A stretch of DNA of 64,000 nucleotides from Flaccisagitta enflata (lineage: Eukaryota), in assembly GCA_965153355.1 (NCBI GenBank), contig OZ231126.1, forward strand, positions 47,058,001 to 47,122,000, in the 5' to 3' direction. Positions 1,685 through 61,000 of this stretch are shown here, piece after piece. Position 1 is the stretch's first letter; each line of letters opens with the position of its first letter. A program made the position numbers and the translations under genes. A model generated the notes under the pieces. The model had not been told where the DNA came from, searched no databases, and worked only from the letters and a program-made list of their open reading frames with translations.

Positions 1685-20266
<18,582 letters not shown>

Positions 20267-41509: not shown

Positions 41510-44500
41510 TCTCTCTCTCTTCCTTCATTGTCCACTACTGAATCTAGATTTATACCGAGGGCAACTTAAGAAAGGTCCAAGATAAGTTACTGATCAATGT
41601 GAACCGAAACCTCAGGCACTACTTCAACCATGCATATCAATACCGAGTCCATGGGAATATCGCGTTCCGGCGAGGCGCCGTCGTATCTCCTCATCGGTTC
41701 CGGTTCGGCTTCTAAATGATCTTCTATCGGCGGTGGATAATGATGGCCACCCATTCGAGGCGGCGGGTAACGCGGATCAGATCCATTCATTGGCCCACCG
41801 TGACGCCCGGGTGGCATTCGTGGGCCCCCAGGACGAGGCAAGCCTCCAATATCCATTGCGTGTGGCGGCATAATAGGAGGCCTCGCCATTGGAGAATGTG
41901 GCGGCATCCCCGGGTGTGGACCACGAATCGCCCCAGGCGGGGGACCGCGAGGACCGCCCGCCATGGGAAGAGGACCACGAGGCGTTCCAGCCATTGGAGG
42001 CGGGCCGCGAGGAGCCCCCGGTGCCAAGTGAGGTGGAGGTGCACCCGAGGCTGGAGGTGGCCCGCGAGCAGGACTGGGCGCCGGCCCTAATATGCCCGGA
42101 GTCCCCGGAAATGCGCCGAGAATTGAGCCTGCGGATGTAGGTGGGGGCTGACCCATGGGCGGCAGTTGGGCCTTGGGTGGAAGATCTCTGGGTGGAAGAT
42201 CTCTGGGTGGAAGATCTCTGGGCGGAAGATCTCTGGGCGGAAGCTCCCTTGGCGGAAACTCCCTGGGTGGAAGTTCCCTGGATGGATGCTCCCTAGGCGG
42301 CAAATCCCTAGGCGGAAAATCCCTGGGCGGAAAATCCCTAGGCGGAAAATCCCTAGGCGGAAAATCCCTAGGCGGAAAATCTCTGGGTGGAAGCTCCCTA
42401 TGTGGAGGTCGGAAACCATTTGGTGGCAGCGCGGGACGAGGCGGGCCCTGACTGGTATAAGGAGGGGGATCTGGTCGATCTGGTCGATCTGGTCGATCTT
42501 GTCGAGGGCGACGAGGATAAGGACCCAGTCGCTTGTTGCAAGTACCGCATTTCGATCGAGGGAGTGGACCCGAACAATCATGACATCTATAGGGGGAGGA
42601 ATGAGAGGAAAATTAAATGCATTATGACGCACTGAAATTAGATAAGGAAGAGTTTACCCAAAGGACTAAATTAACAATCATATTACCATTTTTGCACTGG
42701 TCAGTGATTGATTTGTTTTTTTCATAAATTAGATATGTAAACTTACATGAGGAAACCAATTGGTTACTTCAAATGACGAAGATACAAAAAGACTGAAGGA
42801 AACTCGCTTTTGAAGTGACAAAATGGTAGAAAAATTGATAACAACCATCTCAGTAACTGCCTATTGAAAATTTTAAATTTGCATAGAAAATCAAATTATG
42901 GACAAAACAAGAACATAGCGCGATTCCTAGATCAGCAACTGAGCGCGCTATGTTCTTCTTTTGTTCATATTTTGATTTTCTATGCAAATTTAAAATTTTC
43001 AATGGGTCATGGTACTTTGACAAAAAAAGTCTTTACTGAAATTCACTTGTTTTTTCAGCCATAAAATGAAAAATATGAGATCAAAACGGGCAGATGAAAG
43101 TTGATTCATGCAAAATATGTGTGTTGACAAGTTAATTGAAATTGTTAAACCAAAAATTTTCATAAAATTTCATTCCACAAAAATCATGCTTCATCTGGGT
43201 TGGGTAGCAAATTCTACGATAATTTTCAGTGCGTCTTATGAAGAGAGAAAAGAAATAAAGAAAACAAGGCCGAATTCACGGCTACCCCAGTAGCGTGCGG
43301 GTGGGCAGGGGCTGTTTTTGAGGTCACTATCATTTGGGCAGGAGCAGTGGGGCCAAAGATTGCAAGAAAAACAAAAAAGTTAAGTGTGATGGACGGATGG
43401 ACCAACAGACGGACCAAAGGACGGACAAAGCGGGGTGTAGAGTCGCGTAGCACGCGACTAAAAATGAATAGGAAAAACGGAATGAAAACGATGATAATAG
43501 AAATGAAACAAGGCCAAGTAGTGCAACGATGCGTTGTTTATGAATGAACATTTATTTACGTGTAAATGTTTTTTAATGAACAAATGAATGAACAAACGAA
43601 TGAATGAATGAATGAATGAATAAATGATCAAATGAGAGAATAAGTGGGTTGGTTAGTGGTAGTTTTAATGAGAAAATGCCTCAGATTTTGCAATTTAAAC
43701 ATTTGCGTAATAGAAAAACCATCCGACCAATAGACAGATACGACTTCTTATAAAGATGCGAGGAAAAAAGAAAGAAAAAGAGAAAGGAAGAAAGAAAAAG
43801 AGAGAAAAACAGAAAATGAATGACAGGAAGAAGTTGGAAAACTAAGAATTAAACTAAGAATGAGAGAAGATGACGAAAAAATGAGAAGTAACAAGTTGAA
43901 GAATAAGCCCTACCGGACAACGATGCGTCCGGGCTGTGTCTCAGCTTGTCCTCACGGACGCATCTAAAAATATCGGATTCGTCAGTTCTGCATGGTTCTA
44001 ACATTTGCGTGGCGGACGGACCGACAGATCGACCAACCCACCAACAGACAGACATGACCAAATGCGAGGCCGCACATAAAAAGGGAAGAAAAAAAAAAAA
44101 GGAAAAGAATTTGGAAAGAAAGGTCTAAGAAAAGAAAGAACAATGAAAGAAGATAAGGAAATGAAAAGAAAAAAGCTTCAAAATTACAGTCCCCGACTGG
44201 GGACTAATTTTTGAAGCTTTCTCGTTGCGTAAACGCAACTCGATGAGATACACGACAAGAGCAATTTCAAGAGAAAAAAAAGATATTCAATAATGTTTTA
44301 ATGGTGACAAAACTTTTTCAAAAAATTTTCAAAAAAAAATCTCAAAAAATTTTCAAAAAAATTTTCAGAAAATTTTCAAAAAATTTTCAAAAAAAATTTT
44401 TAAAAAAAATTTTCAAAAGAAATTTTCAAAAAAAAAATTTTCAAAAAAAAAATTTCAAAAAATTTTTCAAAAACAAAATTTCAAAAAAATTTTCAAAAAA

Positions 44501-47500
44501 AAATTTCAAAAAAATTTAGTAGTTGAAGATGATGACAGTAGATGAAGACAGTAGTTGAATGAATGAATGAATTTTATTTTGAAACATGGAATTACAAATA
44601 CGAGTAAATGTAAGACTGCTTCACGGATAGCCCATGAAAGTCTAGTAATGTGACTTTTTTCCAAAGGGGTCCGCGATAATAAAAATTAAAATTCATAAGT
44701 TAAAATAAGAATAAAATCGTAAGATGGTAAAAAGCCGAAATCATATACAGGTAAAAATCCGTCCAACAGAATCCGTAAAATCAGTCATACTGAGAAATCA
44801 AAAACTCTTTTAGTCTCTTCTTAAAAACTCGAAATTCACCAATACTTTTGATATTGGTTGGAAGACTGTTCCAATGCTTGATTGACGCAAAAGAAAAACT
44901 ACTTTGGGACCGAGATAGATCACGAGACAGAACAAAGTTGTACTCGCTTCCACGTGTGTTGTGAGAATGAGCAGCAGATATCGATGTGAAATTAGGGAGC
45001 AAGTATTTAGGAGCAAGTTTGTTTCGAATGCGAAAAATATGCATCATTTGAAAGAATTTAACCCGATCCGGAATGTTCAGCCAGGACAATTCTCAATGGT
45101 TTTTGCAATCAACATGTGCCCTGTGGTCCCAGCCGTTTATGAAACGGACCATTTTTCGTTGAACTACATTAAGCCTTTCCTTCAAGACCGCCGATAAACC
45201 AGAATACCAGGAACTGCAACAGTAGTCTACGTATGGCTGAATAAGCGCAGAATATAGGGTCTGCCTACTTTTCTTGTCTAACAACTGAGACTGGCGATAA
45301 AGAAAAGCCAGTCTTCCTGCGCAGACTTTCATCAAATTCCCCACATGGGCAGAACCGTTTACATTTTCGTCGAGTAAAACACCAAGATATTTTACAGTAA
45401 ACTTGCGCTCAACAGGCATCCCATCACAGAAAACCCGAAAATCCACCCCTTTCAATCTTCTCTTTGAACCAAAGAGCAATGATTCCGTTTTACCAACGTG
45501 AAGGGATAGCCTGTTGTCCACAAGCCATTTTTTACAGCTTGAAAGTTCAATGCTAAGGCGATCAGAAATTATTTTAGCATCACGATGCGCAAAAAGAAGT
45601 GCTGAGTCATCCGCGTAAAGAGAGAGTCTGCATGATAGGCTAATGTTCATGTCATTTATGTATATTAAAAACAACAAGGGACCTAAAATGCTACCTTGTG
45701 GCACTCCACAGGTGACAGGCAAAAACTCAGATCTCGAACCCTTAACATCAACACACTGACGCCGATTTTGTAGATAGGAATCAAACCAGGTTGTGGAAGA
45801 AATACCAATAGATTTAAGTTTTTCACAGAGGATAGCGTGATCAACCGTATCAAATGCCTTCTGCAAATCAATGAGTACCATACCGACAAAATTACCTTTA
45901 CTCAATTCATCCTTAATGAAATCTGAAAGGCCAATCAAACACGAGTCAGTGGAATAGCCACCGCGAAAACCTGATTGATTCTCGAAAAGTAGTCCTCGCT
46001 TTTCTAAATATTCACTAAGTTGTGAGTGTACAGCACGCTCGAGAATTTTCGAAAGAACACTTAAAATACTGACAGGCCTGTAATTGCCTGGATCAAGCGT
46101 CGAACCTTTTTTAAAGAGAGGAATAACTTTCGCCTCCTTGAAAGCAGTTGGAACGGTTTCGGTAGTAATGGAAATATTAACAATGTGGGCAACTGGCCCA
46201 ATTATGCAATCCGCGCCATCATGCAGAAATAGAGAAGATATATCATCCAGTCCAACTGCTTTCCTGGTATTCAGAGATGAAAGCTCTTTCCGTATAAAAT
46301 GAGAAGAGACAGGAGACAGGCAGAAATTAGAGCATAAGCCGATTCTATGTGAATAAAAACTCTTGAAAATAGTGGCAGCCGTATTAAAAACTCCAAGAGG
46401 ATTTGGCAGTTTAGAAACAAGTTTCGAAGCAACCGAAGTGTAGAAGGTGTTAAAAATCTGAGCAACACATAATGAATTAAACTTCTTTTCGCCATTTTGC
46501 TCCAAGACTATAGATGATGAGCCAGCAACTTTTTTACTAAAGCCAAGAGACTTCAAGTGGTTCCAAAGCTTCCCCGAATTACCCCTATTCCTTTCAACCC
46601 CATTCTTGAAAAAACATTCCTTAGCCAACTTGATGTCTCTTTGAACTTTATTCCGTACCTGAAAATACTCCTTATATAAAACATCATTCGACCGGTCTTT
46701 CCTAAAGCGAGAAAAAAGCCTATTCCGTTCCTTAATACCCGAAAGAATGTGGGAATTCATCCATGGATTCAACTTGTTTCGGACTCGAATTTCACGTAAA
46801 GGCGCAACTGTGTCAATTACTGAGCGAAAGAGACGATTGAATTCTAGAAGACAAAAATCTACGTCACTAGAATTTAAGACCGATGACCAATTAATTCTAC
46901 TTAAAGCAGCCGTAAAAGACGCCTTAGAATAGTTTTTAAAGGACCGTACAAATCTGACATTTTGACATGAGAAAACTTCCTTTGCACAACTTCTCGAACT
47001 GAAAGTCACCATATGATCACTGAAACCCTCCGGGATCACCCCACTTTCACTAATCAGATCGCTAACATTCGTAAATATGTGATCAATAAGAGAAGACGAT
47101 GTGGAAGTAATCCTAGTAGGTTCAGTGATCAATTGGTCGCAACCGAAAAAATCAAGAATCTCTTTGAACTTATCCAACAGAGGAGAACGAACTTGTAAGA
47201 AATCAATATTTAGATCACCCAATACATGAAACTCAGTTCCAGGGCTAATTTTAGAAAGGCATAACTCCAACTTAGATAGAAACCCATTATCATTGGGTGG
47301 CCGGTATATAGAGCATACAAGTATACCTTTAGTCCGAGGAAGCAGAAGCTCTATCCAAGTGGCTTCTAGATCGTCGACGGAAAGATCTGGTCGTGGGTTG
47401 AAGGCAATATTGTCGCGAATGAACATTGCGACACCGCCGCCGTTACGATTTCGATCATGCCGAACAATATTGAAGCCAGGAATATGTACCTCGCCATCAC

Positions 47501-50500
47501 CAACCGAGGAATCAAGCCATGACTCAGAGACCGCGAAAACAGATGCCTTAGTCCGTGAGAGCAGAAGTCGAATTTCTGGTAGTTTGGGAATAAGAGAACG
47601 CACATTTGCGTGAAGAAAGTGGAGGCCTTTAGACGTGAGGACGCTAGGAATAGGACAGGATAGAAACGACGATGAAAGAGAAGTAGAGGAAGGAGCCGAG
47701 GAAGAGTTAGCAGTGGCGTCGGCAACGTGTTCGTCGACACCCGTATCATTTGCGAAAGGAAGCGAAGAGAGGCTGCAACGGTCGCAGACAAATGCCAAAT
47801 CAACCCCGTCACGCACGCACTCGTTGTACTTGGTGAGAGAGACAGAGAGAGAACATCGTATGTGCGTCCATTTAAGGCAGTAATCGCACTCAACAGCCTT
47901 ACTCGCCTTGGTTACGCCCTTCGCGCAAACGACACAAGGATGAGCAACATTTCGCGTCCTTTTCCCATCTGAACTCGTAGACGACGTAGACGGTCGCGGT
48001 CCCGGATGAAGATTGACGTCGCCGGAAAGAAGAAGCAGTTGACGTTGATGCTGTGTATGTTGCTGGTGCTGTGTATGTTGCTGGTGCTGTTGTTGATGCT
48101 GTTGTTGATGCTGTAGTTGATGTAGCTGTTGATGATGTAGATGTAGATGCGGCGTAGTAAAAGAGGGAGAACAGACGCTCAAATGATTAAGATGTATGAT
48201 GAGCGAACAGGTGAGAAATGAAAGGAGCGAGGAAGACATTGTCGACTCGGATATTGCCGCCGAAGCTAAACGAGAAATTGAAGCCAAAATTCCTTTGCCG
48301 CACTTGAAAAGTTTTGAAAACCACGTGCACGATGCCCGGTCGTCGCCCACGTCGGGTTAGTTTAAAGTCTTTTTACATTTTCCGCGTAGAATCGCCATAG
48401 GCCCAACATCGGGGACGTCACCATCAAAACCCTGACAGCTTGTCTTCCAATGTTTCTTCAACCTCAAATTTGACTAATCCAGTTTGCTTTTTCAATCTTC
48501 GGTCACGTCACCCTCCGACGCCCAAAATGGAGAACTTAAAAAAACAATTCCAGTATTCAATGTTTCCAGACTTTTCTTATTCTATCGCCGCATCTGATTG
48601 AACTTAATCCATTTTTATCTTCGACTATTCCACCGGAGACACATTTGTAGTCGTCTTAGAGTTGATTATTGAAATTTTTAAATTAAGCAAATAAAAGAAT
48701 GATGACAGTAGTTGAAGACGATGACAGTATTTGAAGATAATACCAGTAGTTGAAGATGATGACAGTAGTTGAAGATGAATCTTGAAATCCATGATGGCAA
48801 ACCTAAAGAAAAATCAGAATGTAATAAATGAGCAAGTAAAAGAATTCCAACTCCAATCCTCTATAGAAATTGCCAAAGTCCTAGAAACATATTACTACAT
48901 TAATAGGCTAATATCTTATAAACCAGACTTCAGATATAATTCAAATTTTGCAAGGGCACTTCAATTAATATCCTTTACTTGTATACCAAATTAAAAAAGA
49001 ATTCACATAACTTTGCTACCCTTTGCCTATGTAAACTGTGAATTATGGCGATTATTTTTGTAGTTTTTTGTGATTATTTGTCAATTTCGCCTATTTTGCT
49101 TTCCTCTCTGTTGATCATATTTGCGCCTGTTATTATCTCTGATTTTCTTCTTAGTTGATCAGTTATAATGTCTTGCGTGGTTCAAGCCTGGTCATGTTCC
49201 GGAGGCGAAATGCTACCTGGTGAGTCTTGGTGTGTATAAGAGGCTGGTTGGGCTGTACTATAGTTATATAGTTTGCTAGATTCCCTTGGTTAGTCAGTTA
49301 TTAGGTTTGTGGTAGGTCTAATCCTTCCTTCTCCCCTTGCCCCTTTCTTCTTTCTTTATCTGCAGCGTTTTGATACGACTTTTTACCTAGAAGACTCGAT
49401 GACGTGATTTTGGTGACGAATTGGCGCGATGATGTCAAACGATTGACTTGATTATGTACAACGAATTGGCGTGACGATGTGCAACGAGAAAGATCGGATA
49501 TGCTGAACATTTCGATGAGACTTGCTGAACATTCGATGGGATTTGCTGAACATTTCGACGAGATTCAAGGAACATTGACGTTGACGTTGGCGTGACGTCA
49601 TTTCCGGTGCGACTTCATCTTGGCGTTGGCGTGACTGCGGCTTTGGCGGCGTCATTCTTCCAGCCATCACTTGGGATTCACGGTACGAGCTTTTGGTGAT
49701 TGACCGTGTCATATGCAGTTTTCTACAGTATCAAAACGGACCTGGACATAACCAGTAATTTTTGTACCCAACCACAACCATGAGCACACAACCACAACAG
49801 GACGCAGGAGAAGGCGGGGAGCGACCAGTTTGGGACAGGCGGATCATCTCCAGAGTAAGGAGGGAGCTGAAACAAGAATACCTACTCGTGGAATCCGCCG
49901 TCAGTTTTGCTTCCGTCAGCTCCGAGCGGTCCGTGCTCATACGGTTTAACGATACAGCGAACAAGTTTTGTGACTTGGTGAACGCAAAGATCGCAGAGTA
50001 CAACAACTGTGTGATAGTAACAAAGGTCGCAGAAAGTGCCGCAAATGATTTGATGGTAGACATACACAGCTACAGGACGAAACTCGACACAACTCTCCAG
50101 CCGAGATATGTGGAGGAGGAGGGGGATGGCCACAGGGATGTGTCGTTCGAGGCCGGATCGCCGATAGAAAAAAAGGCGACGCCGGTCGAATTGAGAGCAA
50201 CGGATGGTGCGGCAGCGGCGCAGAACGGAAAAGACGCCGCACTAGACAAAACGATGCGAATCTCGGACAGCGACCTGAGCGAGGAGGAGGAGGAGGAAGA
50301 GAAGGAGACCGAAGCCACAGAGGAAAACGGCAGGGGGGGAGGCAACGCCGATCAAAACGGCGTAAGCGACGCCCCAGCCAGCGGCATATTCGGCAGGTTA
50401 ACGAATCTGTTTAAAAACTCAACCCCGACGGACGCTGTACCGGCCGTGAACGTGATTCCACCAACACCGGCAGACAAAGAAAGATCGCATACAAGAAGCG

Positions 50501-53500
50501 CCGCATCCATCGCGAGATCGCTCCAAGCGAGAGAAGAAAGAGATAAGAAGAAACAAGAAGAGGAGGAGCAGATGGAGGCGATGAGGAAGCAGAGTGAGGC
50601 AGAGGAGGTAGAGGCAATGCGGAAGGTGGAGGAGATAAGGAAGCAGAGAACATTAAACGAGAAACTACACGCTGCAAAGATGGACGGATTGGAAGCAATC
50701 CATGATAAGCAGCAACAAATCATCGAGGATGAGGAAAGTGAGGCGGCAGCGGAAGAGGCGATGAAAGACCTGGAAAAAACAGTGGAAGGGGCGAAAGGGG
50801 GTAAAGAAGACAATAATGCAGCAGTTGAGAGATGGGCAAAAGGAAATGTGCGCGAGCCCATTGCAAAAATTCTGCCGAAAAAAGTCGAGGTAGCGGCGCC
50901 GCCGAAAGGAAAAGCGGCGGTGAAGCTAGACCTCAAAAACATTAAAGTCACACCCCCAAAGGCAAAATCCCTTCCCGCGATCACCCCCATTATCCGGAAA
51001 GGCCGCATGAACTCTACATCGGAGAAAAAAAGGAGTAAAGAGGCGAGAAGGCTTTCGGAGGAAAAAGAAAAAGCGGAAAAGCGAGCGAGAGATTTGGAGG
51101 CTCAACTGAAACAGGTTCAAGAAACCGCGCGCCAAATGGAAAGCGCACTGAATGCGGTGGAGGAGGATGAGGAGGAGGAGGAAGATGACCTGGAGAAGAT
51201 GCCGTTATCTCCATCATACACAGAAAACAGTGGGTTTTGCGAAATGGTGAAAGTGCAAACCCAGATGTACGCGATGTCGCAACTAAAAGAGGCCCGTCCT
51301 GAGAAAAAATTCGCCGCATGTGGAAAAAAAGTGGATTTTTCAAAACATATGCTCGAATTTGAAACGGCGCTCGGGATAGTAGGCCTAACGGAAACGATGA
51401 AATTGAACGAGTTTCATCACTACTTTGAAGGGTCTGCGCTGCAGCTGATTGAAGCGGAGTTGAGAAGAAAAAACGATGCAGAAAAAGCAGTGTCTGATGC
51501 CATATCAAAACTAAATCGCAAATTTGGCACGAGAAAAGAAACGGCTTTGGAGATGATGGACGAGCTGTTGCAAGGGAAGCAGATTGGCGAGAAGGACCAC
51601 GGCGGGTTGCTGTCATTTTATTGTAGGTTGACTAGCATCCATACTTTGGCTTGCGACACCAATCGTGGAACAGAATTCGAGAACAAACTGGTCGTCGACT
51701 CGATCCTCAGCAAGAAGATTCCCCATCTGTCAGCTAAGTGGGCAAAGCGGTCTGTAAAAGACGCAATGGCCGGGGGAAAGGGATTGAATTTTGCGGCTTT
51801 TTTGAGTTTTCTTGATGAAGAACATGCGATTGCAGAGTATTGTTACAAAAACTCAGGTCAAGCGCAACAGATCAAGCCGATTGGCGCGAAAATAGCGGCG
51901 ACGACGGCAACAACCACCAAGAAGGAAGGAGCGACGGCAGCAGCAGCAACACCGCCCAAACCAGCAGGCGGATGCGGGCGCTGCGGTGGCCAACATCGAC
52001 TTCCGGCGTGTGACATTTTCAAAGGTCTCGCGGTGGGAGACAGAAGAAAATTTTGTATGAACACGCGCAGCTGCTATCAATGCTTGGAGGCGGGGCATAT
52101 GGCGAGAAATTGCCAATCACCCGACAAGTGCCCAATTTGCGGATTGGGGCATCACGAGCTGCTTCATCCGGTGGACGAGACGGCGCCGGCGCCACCTGGC
52201 GAAACAAATAATACGGCATGACTAGCGACGCCGAGACAAAACTCGATATTTAAGGTCGGCGGGGATGATGGAGCATGGAGACTAATTGTGCCGTTGTATG
52301 TGACGAACACGAGTGGAGACAAAATCGCCACATTTGCGCTCCTTGATGGAGGCGCAAATCGCCACGTAGTGTCAGAGGCGATTTGCGCAGATCTTGGTAT
52401 TGAAGGCAGGGATGTAAATATGAAAATTACAACTCTGGACAAAACCGTTGAAGGAGTGAGAAAAGTGGCAGATGTGTCTGTTGTGGGGACAAATGGTTTT
52501 GAGTTGGACCTGAAAAACGCGATCTTCGGCGAAATCATTGCGACGGAAGGCGATAGACCGCCGGAAAATGTCGACGTGGAAAATATGGACCATCTGAGCG
52601 ACATTGATTTTCCCGCGTTTCCCGAAAATATCGCCGGAGGAAAAAAGATTGGCGTTATCATCGGGGCCGAACATGCCAGAATTTGGAGTACGGGCGAAAG
52701 ACGCGTCGGCGACGCGTCACTTCCGGTGGCGCTGGAGACGGGGTTCGGCTTTTGTTTGATCGGCCCAAAGAAGAACATTGACTCGCATTGCTTTGTTTGT
52801 AACCATGTTTCTTTTCAGAGTTGCCCCACAGATACTGAAAAAGACATGAAAAAGTGTTTTGCGAGTGAATTTGAGAGAATCAAAGGAGATGATGAAACAA
52901 TGTCGTTGAAGGATAAGCATGCTGTGCGTCAATTGGAGGAAGGTATCATTTGGGACTCCCTCGCCGAGAGATACCGCGCGCCACTTCCGCATGTCGTCAG
53001 CCGGGAGGCCACCGCCGCCAAAATCAATAAAGTGGATTCGGGCGGTATGGCATTAGACCGACTGTGGAGGACGGGAAGGCAGATGCGAAAAGATCCGGAG
53101 AGACGACGGATAACGTTCGAAACAATGGCGAAATTCGATGAGAAAGGTAGAGTGGTAGAGGTGGATCCGGCGGAGCATGAAGCCACGCCGACAGACCGAC
53201 CAAAATGGACGATTCCGATTCACGTGACTGACAAGCCCGGAAAACCCGGGCAAGTCAGGATCTGTCACGATTGTCGGGCTTCTGTGGGTGGAATCTGCCT
53301 AAATGACTTTCTATTGGACGGCCCCCAACTTGCATGCGACATACGCGGTGTACTGATGCGATTTCGCGACGAGGGCGAAGTAGCGGTAGGCGCCGATATT
53401 AAGGACTTCTTTCATGAAGTGTATATCGCTAAGGAGGACGAGGCCGCCTTTAGATACTGGTGGTTCAAATCGGAAGATATGGACGATGTTCAGCTAAAGG

Positions 53501-56500
53501 GCTTTTTGGGACATGTTTTTGGTGCAAAAAGTTCAAATTTTGTCGCGATCTTCACAAAACGCTTCCACGTTAACAACAAAGCCGCTGAATATGGCGCCTT
53601 GGTTGTTCAAGCCGCGAATCGTAATTTTTATGTCGATGACCTCCTAAAGTCGTTGAGGAACACAAAAATCGCGAAGGAATTCCGGATAAATATGACGGCG
53701 GCGATGAAAGACGGTGGCTTCACTCTCTGCAAATGGCGCTCGTCCAAACCGGAAGTGCTTGATGGAATGGAAGCGGCGCCGGCCGAAAAAGACTTTTGCG
53801 GGCCGGCTGCCGACGCGGACGATATTGGGAAATTGTTAGGGATGCAATATTCGTTTTCTGCCGATGCTTTTTTTTACATTCCAGATCAGGAAAAGCAAAA
53901 TTTAAAAGTGGAAACGAAGCGGCAAATGCTGCAGGTGATTGCATCATTTTTTGACCCGTTGGGTTTCTTGGACCCTTTTGTGATATGGGCGAGACTCATT
54001 CTGCAGAAAGTGATGAAATTGCCAATTGGATGGGACGAGAAAACGATTGAGACGAATCTTCTTGACGAGTTCGCGAGGTGGCAGAGCGATTTTGTGTATC
54101 TTAATGGCTTCAAAATCTGTCGTTGGACGGCGACTTTGGCGACGCAGGATGCAAAACGGCAGCTGATGGTATTCTCGGACGCAAGTAGCGAAGGGTACGG
54201 CGTCGTTATATACGTCAGACGCGCAACGCCGGACGGCGTCATCCACATATCCATCGTCTGCTCGAAGGCGCACGTAGTGCCGGTAAAAGACGCTGAAGCC
54301 GGCCACCACGATTCCATCCCGAGGTTGGAACTGCAAGCGGCGAGATTGGCGGCTAGGATGCGAGTCAACGTGGAAAAAGAGACAGGGAGTTATGATAATG
54401 TGGTAATGTGGACTGATTCTGAATGTGTGATCAAACAGTTGCATGATACCGAAACTTGTTTCAAAGTCTATTTTTCCAATCGCCTTTCAGAAATTCAGGC
54501 GTTGACGAGCGTTGATGAGTGGCGGTGGGTTCCGAGCGGTGACAACCCTGCGGATGACTGCTCCCACGGCCTTCTCGCCAGCGATCCGAAGTGGGCACGT
54601 TTTTTGAATGGTCCGGACTTTTTGCGGAACCGGGAAGAAGATTGGCCGTCAAAGCAGATAGCGACGGAACCATTCCCAGCGCACATTTTGGCGACGACGG
54701 TGACAACGCCGGAAGTTACTCAATGCTCATGGGTGACAAAAATATCGTCGAGTGTCGCGGCATGGAAGGCGAAGGTACGGCGGATCGCGTGGGTGAAGAA
54801 AACTCTCCTCCAGGCGGTGTATCGGCGCCGCGGGGAGACCGGCGCCGTCGAGGCACGTTTGACGACGCCGGATTTACGGGATGCCGAGTTGCTGCTGCTG
54901 AAGGATATACAGCGGCGACACTTTACGAAGGAATTAGCGGCGTTGGCAGTGCAGCCGGCGAAGCCATCAAAGCGCCCGTCTGTGCAACCGAGTTCGACGG
55001 TAGCGGCGTTGAATCCCTTCATCGACGACGCCGGCATTTTAAGATGCAGAGGAAGACTGGAAAAGGCGGATTATCTGCCTTTTGATGCGAAGCATCCGAT
55101 CATTTTGCCCCATGGTGACGACGCTGTACTGGAACTGGTTCGCGGCATGCATGAACGATGCCTCCATGCCGGCGTTGAACAAATTTTGGGGGAATCGCGG
55201 CGCCGTTTTTGGATAACAAAAGGGCGCCGGCTTGTGACTCGTGTTGTAAGGGCGTGTGTGGGATGCCAAAAACTCTTTAAATCGCCTCAATCGCAGCAGA
55301 TGGCGCCACTTCCGTCGGAGAGAACTTTGGTTTGTAGGCCTTTCGAGAACACCGGCGTGGATTGCTTCGGCGCGATCAAGTGTAAGATCGTCGGGCGTGC
55401 ATTTCATGAAGTAAATGTTGCGTTGTTCACTTGTATGGCGACAAGGGCCGTGCATTTCGAAGTTTTGCGGACGATGGAGGCGTCCAGTTTCATCGACGCT
55501 CTGCAACGTTTCCGCGCCCGGAGACCGGCGGTCCGCTGCCTGTTTTCGGATCAAGGCACTAATTTCACCGCCGCCGAGAAGGAGATCGCGGCTGAAGTGG
55601 CTTCTTGGAATGCGTCGTCGGCGAGTGATCTGCATCTGCTGGGGCTGGAGTGGAAATTTAATCCTCCAACGTCTCCGCATCGTGGCGGCGTTTGGGAGCG
55701 GATGGTGAGATCAGCGAAAAAACACTTATCATTCGTGCTCCAACGTGATAATTTGAACATCGAGACTCTGACGACTGTGTTGGCCCAGGCGGAATTGACA
55801 ATGAACTCGAGGCCGATTACTTATGTGTCTGATGAGCCGGGGGTTCATGCCTTGCGGCCGATTGATTTTTTGTGTCCGGGGGTTTTTGCATCGTCGGACT
55901 GTGATATTCTGCCCCCTACCCCACCTGGAGGCGATAATTTGCGGTATAGTTGGCGCCAGTCTAGGGCGCTGGTGGACGAGTTTTGGAAGCGGTGGTCACG
56001 TGATTATCTGTCAGCACTCCAGGCGAGACCGAAGTGGAGATCATCGGAACCAAATCTGCAAGTCGGCGATGTGGTGTTGTTGGTGGATGATCAGTGTCGA
56101 CGGGGTGATTGGCGATGTGGAGTCGTCATGGAGACTGATGGAGGCGAATTGGTGAGGACGGTGACGGTTAAGACTGCTGCCGGCAAAACTTTTTCGCGTG
56201 ATAGAACGAGAGTGGTATGTTTGGAATTGGACCCAATGCGGGCTGAGGAGTAGTTCTTCCTCTTTGTACAGTATTTTTATTTTAGCGTATGCTTTTCGTG
56301 ATTGTTTTTCCGTTGCGCTTTGGGTTTAATTATTTGGAGGATTTTTTGTTGATTGACGCGTTTTGCTTTTTTTGTCGACGATGATTTTGCCCCATCTCTT
56401 TTCTTTAAAGATTATCATTGACGTTTTTCAGCTGATTTTGCGTTATTTCGACTTATTTTTTCTTTTTGATTTTTCGCTTGGCGCTATGGATTGGTTACTT

Positions 56501-57978
56501 AAATGTGGATTTTGTATATGTCATTTTGGTGCAATTTGATGTATTGATTTGTTCGCCTTGAATATTATTTTGCTGTTGCTGTTTCTTTTTGCCTTTCTAT
56601 CTGTGTCCCTCTTCTTTCTTTTAGTTCCCTAGTGGTTATTTAGTGTTAGTGCATTTTAGTTTCTCAGTTGGTGGAAGTTGGTGCTTGTGGAAGTGTCGTA
56701 TTTTTTCTGTGGTATTTTTTCGTGGTAGTGATAATGTCGTCGGTGGATGCTGGAGTGGAAGTGGAGATGGAGGTGGGTGATGGTGCTGGTGCAGCCGGTA
56801 CCGGTGTGGGTGTGGGTAGCCCGCGGATGAGGGGTGGTAGTGCTGGGAGTTTCGTGGGTGGTGCTCTGGAGGAAGACCAGGAAGGGGTGGATGCGGTGGT
56901 GGGTGATGAGGAAGGGGTGAATGCGGTGGTGGGTGATGAGGAGGGGGGTGAGGTACCTCCGGTGCCCTATGCGGATTTTCTGCAGCAGGTACCGGAGGGG
57001 CGGGCGTTGAGGAGGTTGGCATGGATGAAGGACGGGGTGGTGTTGGGCGGCGGAAGGGTCACAGCGGCCGACTTGATGGTGGGCAGCGGGCCGGTGGCTG
57101 TTCCGCCGTGGATGAACTCTTGGGTTGAAATGGACAATGTGGATAGGGATCTTTGTGGATTGCGCCAAGTGGCAGTGGCCTTCCACAAAGTTGCCCACCC
57201 GTCTCTCCCCCACCTGTGTGTGCTGCAGGTGTTGCGGCAGGATCATCTGCCGAACTTTTATTTGATGGTGGATGGACATGATCCGAAGGAATTGTTGGAG
57301 ATTCCGTCTTATAACTTTGATGGAAAGAACGTCATCTTTTGGGGCGAGGAGCCGGGGATGCGTTTTGCGGTGACGACGGCGGTGGAGGAGGAGGGCTTCT
57401 GCGAATATTGGAGCTGGCATGATGAGGAGACTCATCACTCGCCGAAATGGCAGGCTTGGCCGAAGTCGGGGAGGCCGGGTTGTCAGGCCAACGCATTTGG
57501 GCCTTTAGCGCCGGTCTTGCAGTTTTGGGCGGAAGTGGAACAGGTGGTGGCGGCGGCATCGGCGGCACCTACTCCGGCGTGGATGCGGCCGGCATTGAAA
57601 CGGATCGTCGCGGCTTGGAAGGAGAAGTATGACTCTGTTTTGAAGAAGCCGGAGTATGTGCCGGAGGAGTTCTTTGGGGCAAAGCGGCGCGGCGGCCAGG
57701 GGAAGGGGATGTTGGCGGCGCAGGAGTTGTTGGCAGATGCAATGCGGGGGATGCATTTTACGGAGCCAGAGGCGGCCAGTGGGGCATTGCCTGCCGGGGA
57801 GGCAATGCCGCCTCTAGTGCCGGCGGAGGAAGTGGTGGTGGCGGCGCCGGAGGTGCCGGCGGCGGTGGCAGCGTCGTCGGCGGCGGTGGCGGCGTCATCA
57901 GCGGCGGCGGCGGCGACGGTGTCTTCGGTGGTGAGGGCTGTGGTCGGTGGGGGTGGCGTTCCTCCGGCTGCGGTTGAT

Positions 57979-58012
<34 letters not shown>

Positions 58013-61000
58013 AGGCGGAGAAGCAGAGGAAGAAAACGAAGAACAAAGAGAGGCACGATAGGGCGAAGATGGCAAGGGAGGCGAAACGCGAGGAGGAGGC
58101 TCGTGCCAAGGAGGAGGAGGAGCGGCGGCGCTGGGAGGACCAACAGCGGCGTTGGGAGGAGGAGCAGCGCCGGGTTGAGGAGGAAGGGCGCCGGGTGGAG
58201 GAAGAGCGGCGCCGGTTGGAGGAGGAGCGGCGCCGGCGGGAGGAAGTGGCTGCGGCGGAAGTTGCGCGGAAGGAGGAAGAGCTGCGCCGTGCGAGGGAGG
58301 CGTTGGCAGGATGCGGCGGCGGTGGAGGTGCCCCTGGCAGGCCCTCATCGTCGTCATCACAGTGGCGTGAGAGGGGCCATTGTGGCTTTCGTGCCCCTCT
58401 TCCTCCGTCGTCTTCAGTCTCGTCGGGGCGGGTCCAGCCGCCGTCTCGGGCGCTGGACGCGTCGTTTGCGTCATCGTCGTCGGCGATGTCGCAGGAGGAA
58501 GTGGACTTGGCGGTGGCGCAGGCATACGCGGCGGGTGCGCGCCGCGAGCGGGAGGCGAGGCGAGAGAGGGAGCAAGGGGTGCGCGAGCGCAGCGACGACC
58601 GTGCTTCAGCCCCTTCAGCAACATCAACGCCACGGGCTGAGAGGCCGTCTCGGCCGCAGTCCCGCGGCGGTTATGGCGGTGGTGGTAGTGGTCGTCATGG
58701 ATGGCGCGGCGGTTCGGCGTCGGGCCGGCGGCGTTAGAAGCATGCCGCCGTGTCCGTCCGTCCGTCCGTCTGCTCGCCCGTTACTTAGGTAGGTTTTGCC
58801 TGCGTCTTCCCTGTGTTTTTTTTTGAGGGGGGACGGTTGATTAGGTTTGAAGTATGATTCAAACGGGGGGATTGTGAATTATGGCGATTATTTTTGTAGT
58901 TTTTTGTGATTATTTGTCAATTTCGCCTATTTTGCTTTCCTCTCTGTTGATCATATTTGCGCCTGTTATTATCTCTGATTTTCTTCTTAGTTGATCAGTT
59001 ATAATGTCTTGCGTGGTTCAAGCCTGGTCATGGTCCGGAGGCGAAATGCTACCTGGTGAGTTTTGGTGTCTATAAGAGGCTTGTTGGGCTGTACTGTAGT
59101 TATATAGTTTGCTAGATTCCTTTGGTTAGTCAGTTATTAGGTTTGTGGTAGGTCTAATCCTTCCTTCTCCCCTTGCCCCTTTCTTCTTTCTTTTATCTGC
59201 AGCGTTTTGATACGACTTTTTACCTAGAAGACTCGATGACGTGATTTTGGTGACGAATTGGCGCGATGATGTCAAACGATTGACTTGATTATGTACAACG
59301 AATTGGCGTGACGATGTGCAACGAGAAAGATCGGATATGCTGAACATTTCGATGAGACTTGCTGAACATTCGATGGGATTTGCTGAACATTTCGACGAGA
59401 TTCTATGAACATTGACGTTGGCGTTGGCGTGACGTCATTTCCGGTGCGACTTCATCTTGGCGTTGGCGTGATTGCGGCTTTGGCGGCGTCATTCTTCCGG
59501 CCATCACTTGGAATTCACGGTACGAGCTTTTGGTGATTGACCGTGTCATATGCAGTTTTCTACATAAACTGCCTAAGTCATAGTAACATATCACTACATA
59601 AATAAGCTAATATCTCATAAAGCAGATTTCAGATTTAATTCAAATTTTACAGGGCTTATTTATTTACTACCCTCTACTTGCATACCAAATTAGAAAAAAA
59701 TTCACATACCTTTACTACCCTTTGCCTATGTAAATTGCCCAAGTCCTAGCAACATACTATTACATAAATAAACTAATATCTCATAAACCAGACTTCAGAT
59801 TTAATTCGAATTTTGCAGGGGTTGTTTATTTACTACCCTCTACTTGTTTACCAAATTAAAAAAAAATTCATAAACCTTTACTACCCTCTACCTATGTAAA
59901 ATGCTTAAGTCCCAGCTAAATATTACTACAAAAATAATAGGCAAAGGGTAGTAAAAGTTAATGAATTTTTTTGAAAATTGGTGCACAAGCTCCTATTGAC
60001 CTACAAACAACACCAGCAAAGTTTCATAAAATTCTGAAGTCTGGTTCCAAAAATATGAGAGGGTTTTAAACAGACAGACAGACGGACAGACAGACTACAC
60101 ATCACTGCTACTTCATAGTCACCGACGAAAGCTGTTCGTCGGGGACAAAAAAAAAGGAACCGGTAGTACCTATAGTGAACATCCAGCCAAAATTAAGATT
60201 GAGCGTAAGTTCAAGAATATTCAGCTATACAAAATTATCATTAACAAGTCCGATCAGGCAACGATGCGTCCTGACTTTGTCTCTGCTTGTATTGACTTTG
60301 GCGCTCAACTCGGATGGTCAGAAAGGTGAAAAGACATAGAACCATAAGAGGCTCTCAAAACATCCTAACGACTGTTTGACTTGATGCGTGACACCCTCGC
60401 GGCCGAAAATTGCCAAAAACTACGATTTTCAAGGTGTAACTGACGGAGGGACGGACCAACCGACCGATGGAGGGACGGACCAACCGACCGACGGACGGAT
60501 GGACGGACAGACAGAACCTCATAGATATGCAAGGACGCATCTAAAAACGAACTTGCAATGACTTTGCATGAATGGAGTACACAAAATTGAAAACAAATTT
60601 GTGTTCACGTTTCACACCTTACCAAATGACGCTCTCACCTGTGGGGAAACGGGCATCTGCCGCCCCTCATGCATTGTCCCATCTGGAATTCTTTGCATAC
60701 AAACATGCTCTTGATGCCGCCCTTGCACTTGACGCATCTCGATTTCGGGTATGGACCGAGACAATCGATACACACGTGACGTTTCTCGCATTTCACGCCA
60801 TTGTCGCATCCCTTGGCGTGATTAAACGCTTCGCAAATTTCTTTAACGTAACGCCAGCCTTCCTCATCGACCTCGGTGTCCTCGGGTTCCGGTTCGGACG
60901 TCTCGCCCTTGGCGGCTTTCGCTTCCTCTTCTTTGATCTTCTGCGCGCAGCTAAGCAGCGTGGAGATGTTGAGGTCGTACAGCGTCAATGCGTCCATCAT

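Follow-up and report, generated by a model that had tools for sequence, protein, structure and literature searches.

When a single in-frame stop codon separates gag from pol in a retrotransposon that is otherwise open from end to end, is that stop a lesion or a signal that the element uses? The question is raised by a BEL/Pao-type long terminal repeat (LTR) retrotransposon in a stretch of 64,000 nucleotides of Flaccisagitta enflata DNA (contig OZ231126.1 of assembly GCA_965153355.1, forward-strand positions 47,058,001 to 47,122,000), hereafter called the window. The element occupies positions 49037-59564 and is a full-length and apparently intact BEL/Pao-type element of 10.5 kb. It is flanked by two LTRs of the TG...CA type and by the same pentamer TAAAC on both sides, and is therefore a complete LTR retrotransposon. 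All coordinates given here are positions within the window, and all features of the element lie on the + strand (Table 1). To our knowledge, BEL/Pao elements are treated as elements with a single open reading frame (ORF). Comparison of the junction with those of its relatives suggests that the gag-pol split of this element is ancestral, and that its UGA is probably bypassed by programmed, context-driven readthrough to produce Gag-Pol.

The gag and pol genes lie in one common frame, as two stop-to-stop frames that adjoin without overlap (49759-52221 and 52222-56253). The junction reads ...ACG GCA TGA CTA GCG ACG CCG AGA..., with the TGA at 52219-52221 and the CTAG at 52222-52225, in agreement with the initial annotation. 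This TGA is the sole in-frame stop in 2851 codons, which contain no other stop or frameshift, and both genuine terminal stops of the element are TAG. All 48 Trp codons are TGG; together with the single in-frame TGA, this indicates that UGA is a stop here and not a reassigned sense codon. The other two frames are closed beside the junction, by a TAA at 52209 and a TAG at 52223, so that a detour through another frame is not the route into pol. It had also been claimed that pol continues in the gag frame with no ATG ahead of the protease active site, and this holds: the first in-frame ATG past the stop is pol codon 67 (52420), downstream of the protease Asp at codon 42, and the only start-like codons before that Asp are GTG, TTG and GTG at pol codons 23, 25 and 27. 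The stop is placed 17 codons past the last zinc knuckle of gag and 12 codons ahead of the first conserved pol block, within a knuckle-to-pol linker of about 26-30 codons that makes up about 1% of the codons of the element. A CTAG following an in-frame codon occurs at 3 of 2845 codon positions (about 0.1%) in the three ORFs of the element.

To place the stop in a wider family, relatives were compared as proteins only. A word-based search with the C-terminal half of gag found seven proteins from ENA records, with 43-99% identity, and all seven terminate at the aligned last column of the window's gag. Their final Ala is invariant, whereas the 10-25 residues ahead of it vary both in sequence and in length. 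A profile built from this alignment was searched against 1.84 billion representatives and matched 11,388 of them at E<=0.001; the number fell to 1762 at E<=1e-10 and to 119 at E<=1e-30. The 150 best of all these matches were listed. Re-scanning of 162 proteins with the gag profile gave 156 matches; 35 were set aside as fragments or partial matches, and the 121 proteins whose match came within 30 positions of the profile end were retained. Stand-alone gag proteins, which terminate within 70 residues of the match, accounted for 118 of these 121, and their tails past the last knuckle had a median of 21 residues (range 1-74, n=118). The other three, P0006 (sea urchin, Lytechinus), P0155 and P0162, continue for 330-1312 residues and are distant fused gag-pol polyproteins, the gag part of which is also matched by the profile.

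The residue next to the stop was distinctive in this larger set as well. Among the 118 stand-alone gags, the last residue was Ala in 52, Leu in 17 and Ser in 12, against a background of 12% Ala in the preceding 29 residues (binomial p=3e-18, shared ancestry being ignored), and 18 of the 20 best-scoring homologues end in Ala. These alignments show the residue just before the putative recoding stop to be apparently under constraint and its neighbours not. A conserved codon beside the stop is a feature of stop-centred recoding signals such as those of the fission-yeast elements Tj1 and Tosmo, and the comparison thus suggests that the 5′ neighbour codon belongs to the signal, although the conserved terminal Ala may alternatively be a processing site. 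A second group of stand-alone gags, P0048-P0142, ends in Leu, Ile or Val, often as ...NP(V/I/L)L, which hints that a sister group has another conserved end and perhaps another recoding signal.

The relatives of pol gave the complementary picture. When the read-through protein, with X at the stop, was searched against proteins of 1186-3775 aa, only five pol-only proteins of 1304-1338 aa and a sea-urchin fusion with 22% identity were found, and no fused gag-pol of 1186-3775 aa was present in the close family. A profile search with the pol alignment yielded 40 proteins. All 15 relatives with at least 39% identity were pol-only, 841-1345 aa long and without a gag-type domain; P0173, with 32% pol identity, has 1374 aa. 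Among the 24 lowest-ranked matches (25-33% identity), 19 had a length of 1600-2163 aa, and PF03564, which we take to be a gag-region family, was present alongside the pol domains in 14 of these 24. Fused forms were found only at 33% pol identity or below. This fits the earlier statement that most BEL/Pao elements have one fused ORF. None of the N-termini of the top 16 of the 40 matches reaches upstream of the column equivalent to the stop, and those that extend furthest, P0001 and P0172, begin at the column right after the window's stop and are similar from there on.

Two near-identical copies have the same organization. P0007 is as long as the window's gag, ends at the same point and departs from it at 23 of 813 residues. 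P0170, a pol fragment of 841 residues, shows 9 differences in 840 besides its start, and begins at the first GTG past the stop (52288), which is where an ORF caller would begin if the stop were present. The 90% clusters of P0007 and P0170 have 11 members each. Searches of genome contigs gave no match to the exact 23-base junction pattern, and a pattern search based on the pol alignment gave 33 matches, none of which was a true relative. As judged from the protein comparisons, these data show that the gag/pol split at this exact boundary is in all appearance ancestral to a sizeable clade and is kept in near-identical copies, and that the canonical single-ORF BEL/Pao elements are the more distant relatives.

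The initial annotation had further proposed a stem-loop downstream of the stop as an aid to readthrough. Its pairing hexamers, CGCCGA (52229-52234) and TCGGCG (52256-52261), are indeed complementary and lie at those positions, with a spacer of 7 nt after the stop. When windows of 39, 49 and 79 nt are folded, the resulting hairpin is obtained as the structure of lowest energy, at -9.3 to -9.9 kcal/mol in the short windows, and it also appears in a 91-nt window. However, it is no more stable than expected from composition. Against shuffled sequences, the 39-nt window had a z value of -1.19, the 49-nt window one of -0.52 and the 79-nt window one of -0.02, with 24, 54 and 86 of 200 shuffles, respectively, folding equally well or better; the 91-nt window gave +0.31, and the window of 122 nt from the stop, in the fold of which the hairpin is unused, gave -0.13. 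Across the coding region of the element, 28-82% of windows of the same size (40-120 nt) are at least as stable as those after the stop. Five folded windows and an element-wide scan therefore revealed no structure above chance downstream of the stop, and the hairpin is probably not part of the signal. Neither a selenocysteine insertion sequence (SECIS) nor any other Rfam family gave a credible match at E<=1 in 48800-59800; the lone match, to snoR118 inside gag (E=0.99), is at chance level.

Programmed readthrough would work here as follows. Of the ribosomes that initiate at the gag AUG (49780), the majority would terminate at the UGA and release the 813-residue Gag. As UGA-CUAG is a poor terminator, a minority would decode the UGA with a near-cognate tRNA, insert an amino acid and continue into a Gag-Pol fusion of about 2157 residues that contains protease, reverse transcriptase and integrase. 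Readthrough would thereby set a high ratio of Gag to Gag-Pol, and the protease would subsequently free the enzymes from the fusion. We infer that the UGA is bypassed by translational readthrough, which would be determined by the CUAG on its 3′ side and perhaps also by the conserved Ala codon that precedes it. This reading draws on the anatomy of the junction, on the documented tendency of UGA to be read through when C, CU or CUAG follows, and on the parallel with the fission-yeast Tj1/Tosmo/Tcry elements. According to the available text of PMC10085805, the contexts that favour readthrough are TGA and a following C, CT or CTAG, and in-frame stops between gag and pol are a known strategy of gammaretroviruses, Ty3/gypsy and copia-type elements. 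In a mutagenesis assay described in the accessible part of PMC13517186, where the label 'type II' is used for a readthrough context, readthrough exceeded 15% with CUAGGC-type contexts.

Several points weigh against this interpretation. The support for it is indirect and comes from sequence, and termination at UGA-C in this host is assumed by analogy with other eukaryotes. A stimulatory structure accompanies many efficient readthrough sites of viruses, and none above chance was detected here. The terminal-Ala statistic counts related proteins as independent, and some of the listed gag proteins may be truncated by contig ends and not by stops. A further point is the number of stops. The alignment of the two LTRs, 692 columns long, contains 12 substitutions and 1 indel, 13 differences in all, which shows that the copy is not a fresh insertion. 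In a neutral-decay simulation scaled to this divergence, 1.3-2.6 new stops were expected, with P(<=1)=0.26 at the full rate (mean 2.6). One stop is therefore unsurprising, and the stop count is compatible with a chance mutation and not decisive; the case is carried by position, context and comparison.

These three lines bear directly on the possibility that the stop arose as a nonsense mutation private to one dead copy, for example by a C-to-T change in an Arg codon, its position and context being coincidental. Such an accident would explain neither why gag terminates at one and the same residue in seven of seven relatives with identities as low as 43%, nor why 118 of 121 gag homologues are stand-alone, all 15 closer pols are pol-only and the split is common to two near-identical copies. 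It would also have had to fall within about 1% of the codons and in a CTAG context with a chance frequency of 0.1%, in an element without a further stop or frameshift in 2851 codons. By this comparison a private mutation is largely refuted and very improbable, and the earlier argument that the stop is not a random nonsense mutation is upheld by the clade-wide split, the two near-identical copies and the rare UGA-CUAG context. It is scarcely credible that the UGA is instead read regularly as an amino acid, either as selenocysteine or as a host sense codon, with gag-pol forming one ordinary ORF. The frame is indeed open when UGA is read, but it contains this TGA only, the Trp codons are exclusively TGG, no SECIS matched at E<=1 across the 11-kb element region, and ORF callers closed gag at this point in the relatives.

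An ancestral split would also be compatible with separate expression of Pol, be it from a spliced RNA or a subgenomic one, as known for foamy viruses, through excision of a short in-phase intron together with the stop, or through non-AUG initiation or reinitiation just past the stop. The CTAG could be used as a YAG acceptor, and a GT at 52172, 54 nt upstream of 52225, would give an in-phase interval, but this GT lies within GTGGAC and was judged a poor donor. Initiation could use the GTG and TTG codons at pol codons 23, 25 and 27, and the failure to find a stimulatory RNA structure is in keeping with separate expression. However, similarity to P0001 sets in within about 3 codons of the stop, ahead of every ATG in the window copy, which argues that the stretch after the stop is translated. 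The conserved last gag codon is unexplained by splicing or by internal initiation, and the shared frame would be needless, so that we regard separate expression of Pol as unlikely. Frameshifting between gag and pol, which is common in LTR retroelements (PMC10085805, as far as the available text goes), could likewise underlie the clade-wide split elsewhere, protein comparison being compatible with different frames for gag and pol in the relatives; the present same-frame copy would then be a secondary variant or shifted by an indel, perhaps with poor Pol expression. This is an improbable account of the junction: both frames in the window are intact and in phase, the stop lies exactly where gag ends and pol similarity starts in the relatives, and the near-identical gag copy is equal in length. 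The site is moreover bracketed by stops in both other frames, and frameshifting would presumably give no reason for the invariant last gag residue.

Readthrough of the UGA, as preferred here, has its closest parallel in the Ty3/gypsy elements Tj1, Tosmo1-3 and Tcry1, in which gag and pol are likewise separated by one in-frame TGA, with CT(A/G) after it and a strictly conserved codon before it (PMC10085805, available text). In the fission-yeast elements Tj1 and Tosmo, GAA TGA CT is strictly conserved, and the stop of Tj1 is required for transposition; the TGA of Tj1, Tosmo and Tcry1 is interpreted in the same text as programmed readthrough that holds Gag-Pol below Gag (PMC10085805). These elements differ from the present one in being fungal Ty3/gypsy chromoviruses and not BEL/Pao elements, in having GAA (Glu) where GCA (Ala) is found here, and in that conservation of the codon was established at the DNA level for them but at the protein level only for the present clade. 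The same tetranucleotide follows the UGA in mammalian cellular UGA-CUAG genes (Loughran et al. 2014, in PMC10085805), and in these, from what the accessible texts report, the context alone suffices for several percent readthrough or more (PMC10085805, PMC13517186). The mammalian genes gain short C-terminal extensions, whereas here the extension is a Pol of 1343 residues. The signal of murine leukaemia virus (MuLV) consists of a UAG, a spacer and a pseudoknot, whereas the codon here is UGA and no structure above chance follows it. MuLV-type gammaretroviruses nevertheless resemble the present element in having an in-frame stop at the gag/protease boundary, the suppression of which yields Gag-Pol (Yoshinaka 1985, in PMC10085805, available text). 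A UGA with a 3′ C or CUA is similarly found in alphaviruses and plant viruses (Li and Rice 1993, in the available text of PMC10085805), but these sites lie in replicase genes of RNA viruses and not at the gag-pol junction of a retroelement.

The element itself shares with the canonical BEL/Pao elements Pao, BEL and Sinbad the domains PF05380, PF17921 and PF18701, the protease motifs LLDxG and LIG, and the Cys/His knuckles of gag. Those elements have one fused gag-pol ORF of 1600-2163 aa (e.g. P0174 of Branchiostoma and P0006 of Lytechinus), whereas here the ORF is split by the TGA. The motifs LLDXG and LIG are described for Pao-like proteases in the accessible part of PMC554778. In the window they are found near the N-terminal end of pol, the first as LLDGG at 52339-52353 (Asp at 52345-52347, codon 42). 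The protease of this clade thus has DGG, in contrast to the DSG of the fused P0155 and P0162. The D42-G43-G44 of LLDGG was invariant in six aligned close-family pols, and more distant clade members have DNG, DDG, DSG or DTG. The Pfam matches of pol are, in order, PF05380 (E=4e-36), PF17921 (integrase zinc-binding) and PF18701 (DUF5641), and its nearest Atlas clusters are all PF05380 families. The gag is recognised by no Pfam gag model; zf-CCHC matches at gag residues 764-779 with 17.1 bits, below the cut-off of 20.8, and the Cys/His columns of the knuckles show no variation across eight aligned sequences.

A full-text literature search found no report of readthrough in BEL/Pao or Belpaoviridae, although subscription papers, such as recoding surveys, could list such stops. 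Gag-pol recoding in LTR retrotransposons is reportedly surveyed mainly in Gao et al. 2003. The terms 'stop codon', 'frameshift' and 'readthrough' do not occur in the text of the BEL/Pao survey PMC3118150, and in the available text of the Sinbad paper stops appear solely as disabling mutations. The mechanism and the UGA-CUAG context are thus already known; the BEL/Pao setting is new, and we do not claim priority for it. It is conceivable, though we put it forward only tentatively, that a large undescribed BEL/Pao-like clade left the single ORF for a gag-stop-pol organization by way of UGA readthrough, in which the Ala codon, as a new determinant upstream of the stop, would cooperate with the 3′ CUAG and no RNA structure would be required. 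If confirmed, this would be a retroelement lineage that switched its strategy of Gag:Pol dosing, and it would offer a naturally occurring cassette in which readthrough depends on no RNA structure and an Ala codon 5′ of the stop is conserved. For annotators, it means that this stop should not count as disabling when the intactness of copies is judged.

Table 1. Features of the BEL/Pao-type element, given as positions within the window
Feature	Positions	Strand	Remarks
Target-site duplication, left copy, TAAAC	49032..49036	+	5 bases abutting the 5′ LTR, identical at the 3′ flank
5′ LTR, TG...CA, 691 nt	49037..49727	+	98.1% identity to 58873-59564
gag ORF, 813 codons + TGA	49780..52221	+	Divergent BEL/Pao gag; ATG at 49780
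Three Cys/His zinc knuckles, nucleocapsid-like gag end	51973..52167	+	Within the last 82 gag residues (translation)
Proposed recoding site, GCA (Ala) TGA CTAG	52216..52225	+	Context plus conserved terminal Ala
Hairpin of the initial annotation, 6 bp, 21-nt loop	52229..52261	+	Unsupported as a signal
pol ORF, 1343 codons + TAG	52222..56253	+	Protease, Pao reverse transcriptase/RNase H region, integrase
Third open frame, 695 codons	56650..58737	+	First ATG at 56734, TAG end; reality uncertain
Purine-rich, polypurine-tract-like stretch	58858..58872	+	Immediately before the 3′ LTR
3′ LTR, TG...CA, 692 nt	58873..59564	+	Repeat of the 5′ LTR
Target-site duplication, right copy, TAAAC	59565..59569	+	Abuts the 3′ LTR

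The segment that follows the 5′ LTR (49728-49779) lacks at its start the usual TGG of a tRNA primer-binding site, and there was no tRNA gene within the window with which it could be compared. Searching the window by tblastn with gag, pol and ORF3 detected the element itself only and no second copy. The third frame (56650-58737) had neither a Pfam nor an Atlas match. Its translation is of low complexity, rich in Ala, Glu and Arg and hydrophobic at the N-terminal end, and several further frames on both strands are also open in this region. It was considered as an env gene, but this was dropped for want of a Pfam or Atlas match and because of the low-complexity composition; the frame may be an artefact of composition rather than an env-like gene, and it was left unnamed.

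The element is flanked on both sides by a repeat unit of about 166-179 nt (48860-49036 and 59559-59990), which reappears inverted at 5950-6523; the retrotransposon is thus inserted in a satellite-like array with a unit of about 170 nt. Directly upstream, on the - strand at 45093-48356, is a non-LTR retrotransposon of the long interspersed nuclear element (LINE) type, with a frame of 1087 codons that encodes an endonuclease/exonuclease/phosphatase domain and a reverse transcriptase and shows a weak PHD-finger match. An A/T-rich array with a period of 11-15 nt, made of AAAATTTTCAAAAA-like units, was found at 44298-44540. The remainder of the window to the left (1-43000) contains many long frames of 200-600 codons without a Pfam match, and the sole matches there, to Tim17 and eIF2B-epsilon, are weak and below the cut-off.

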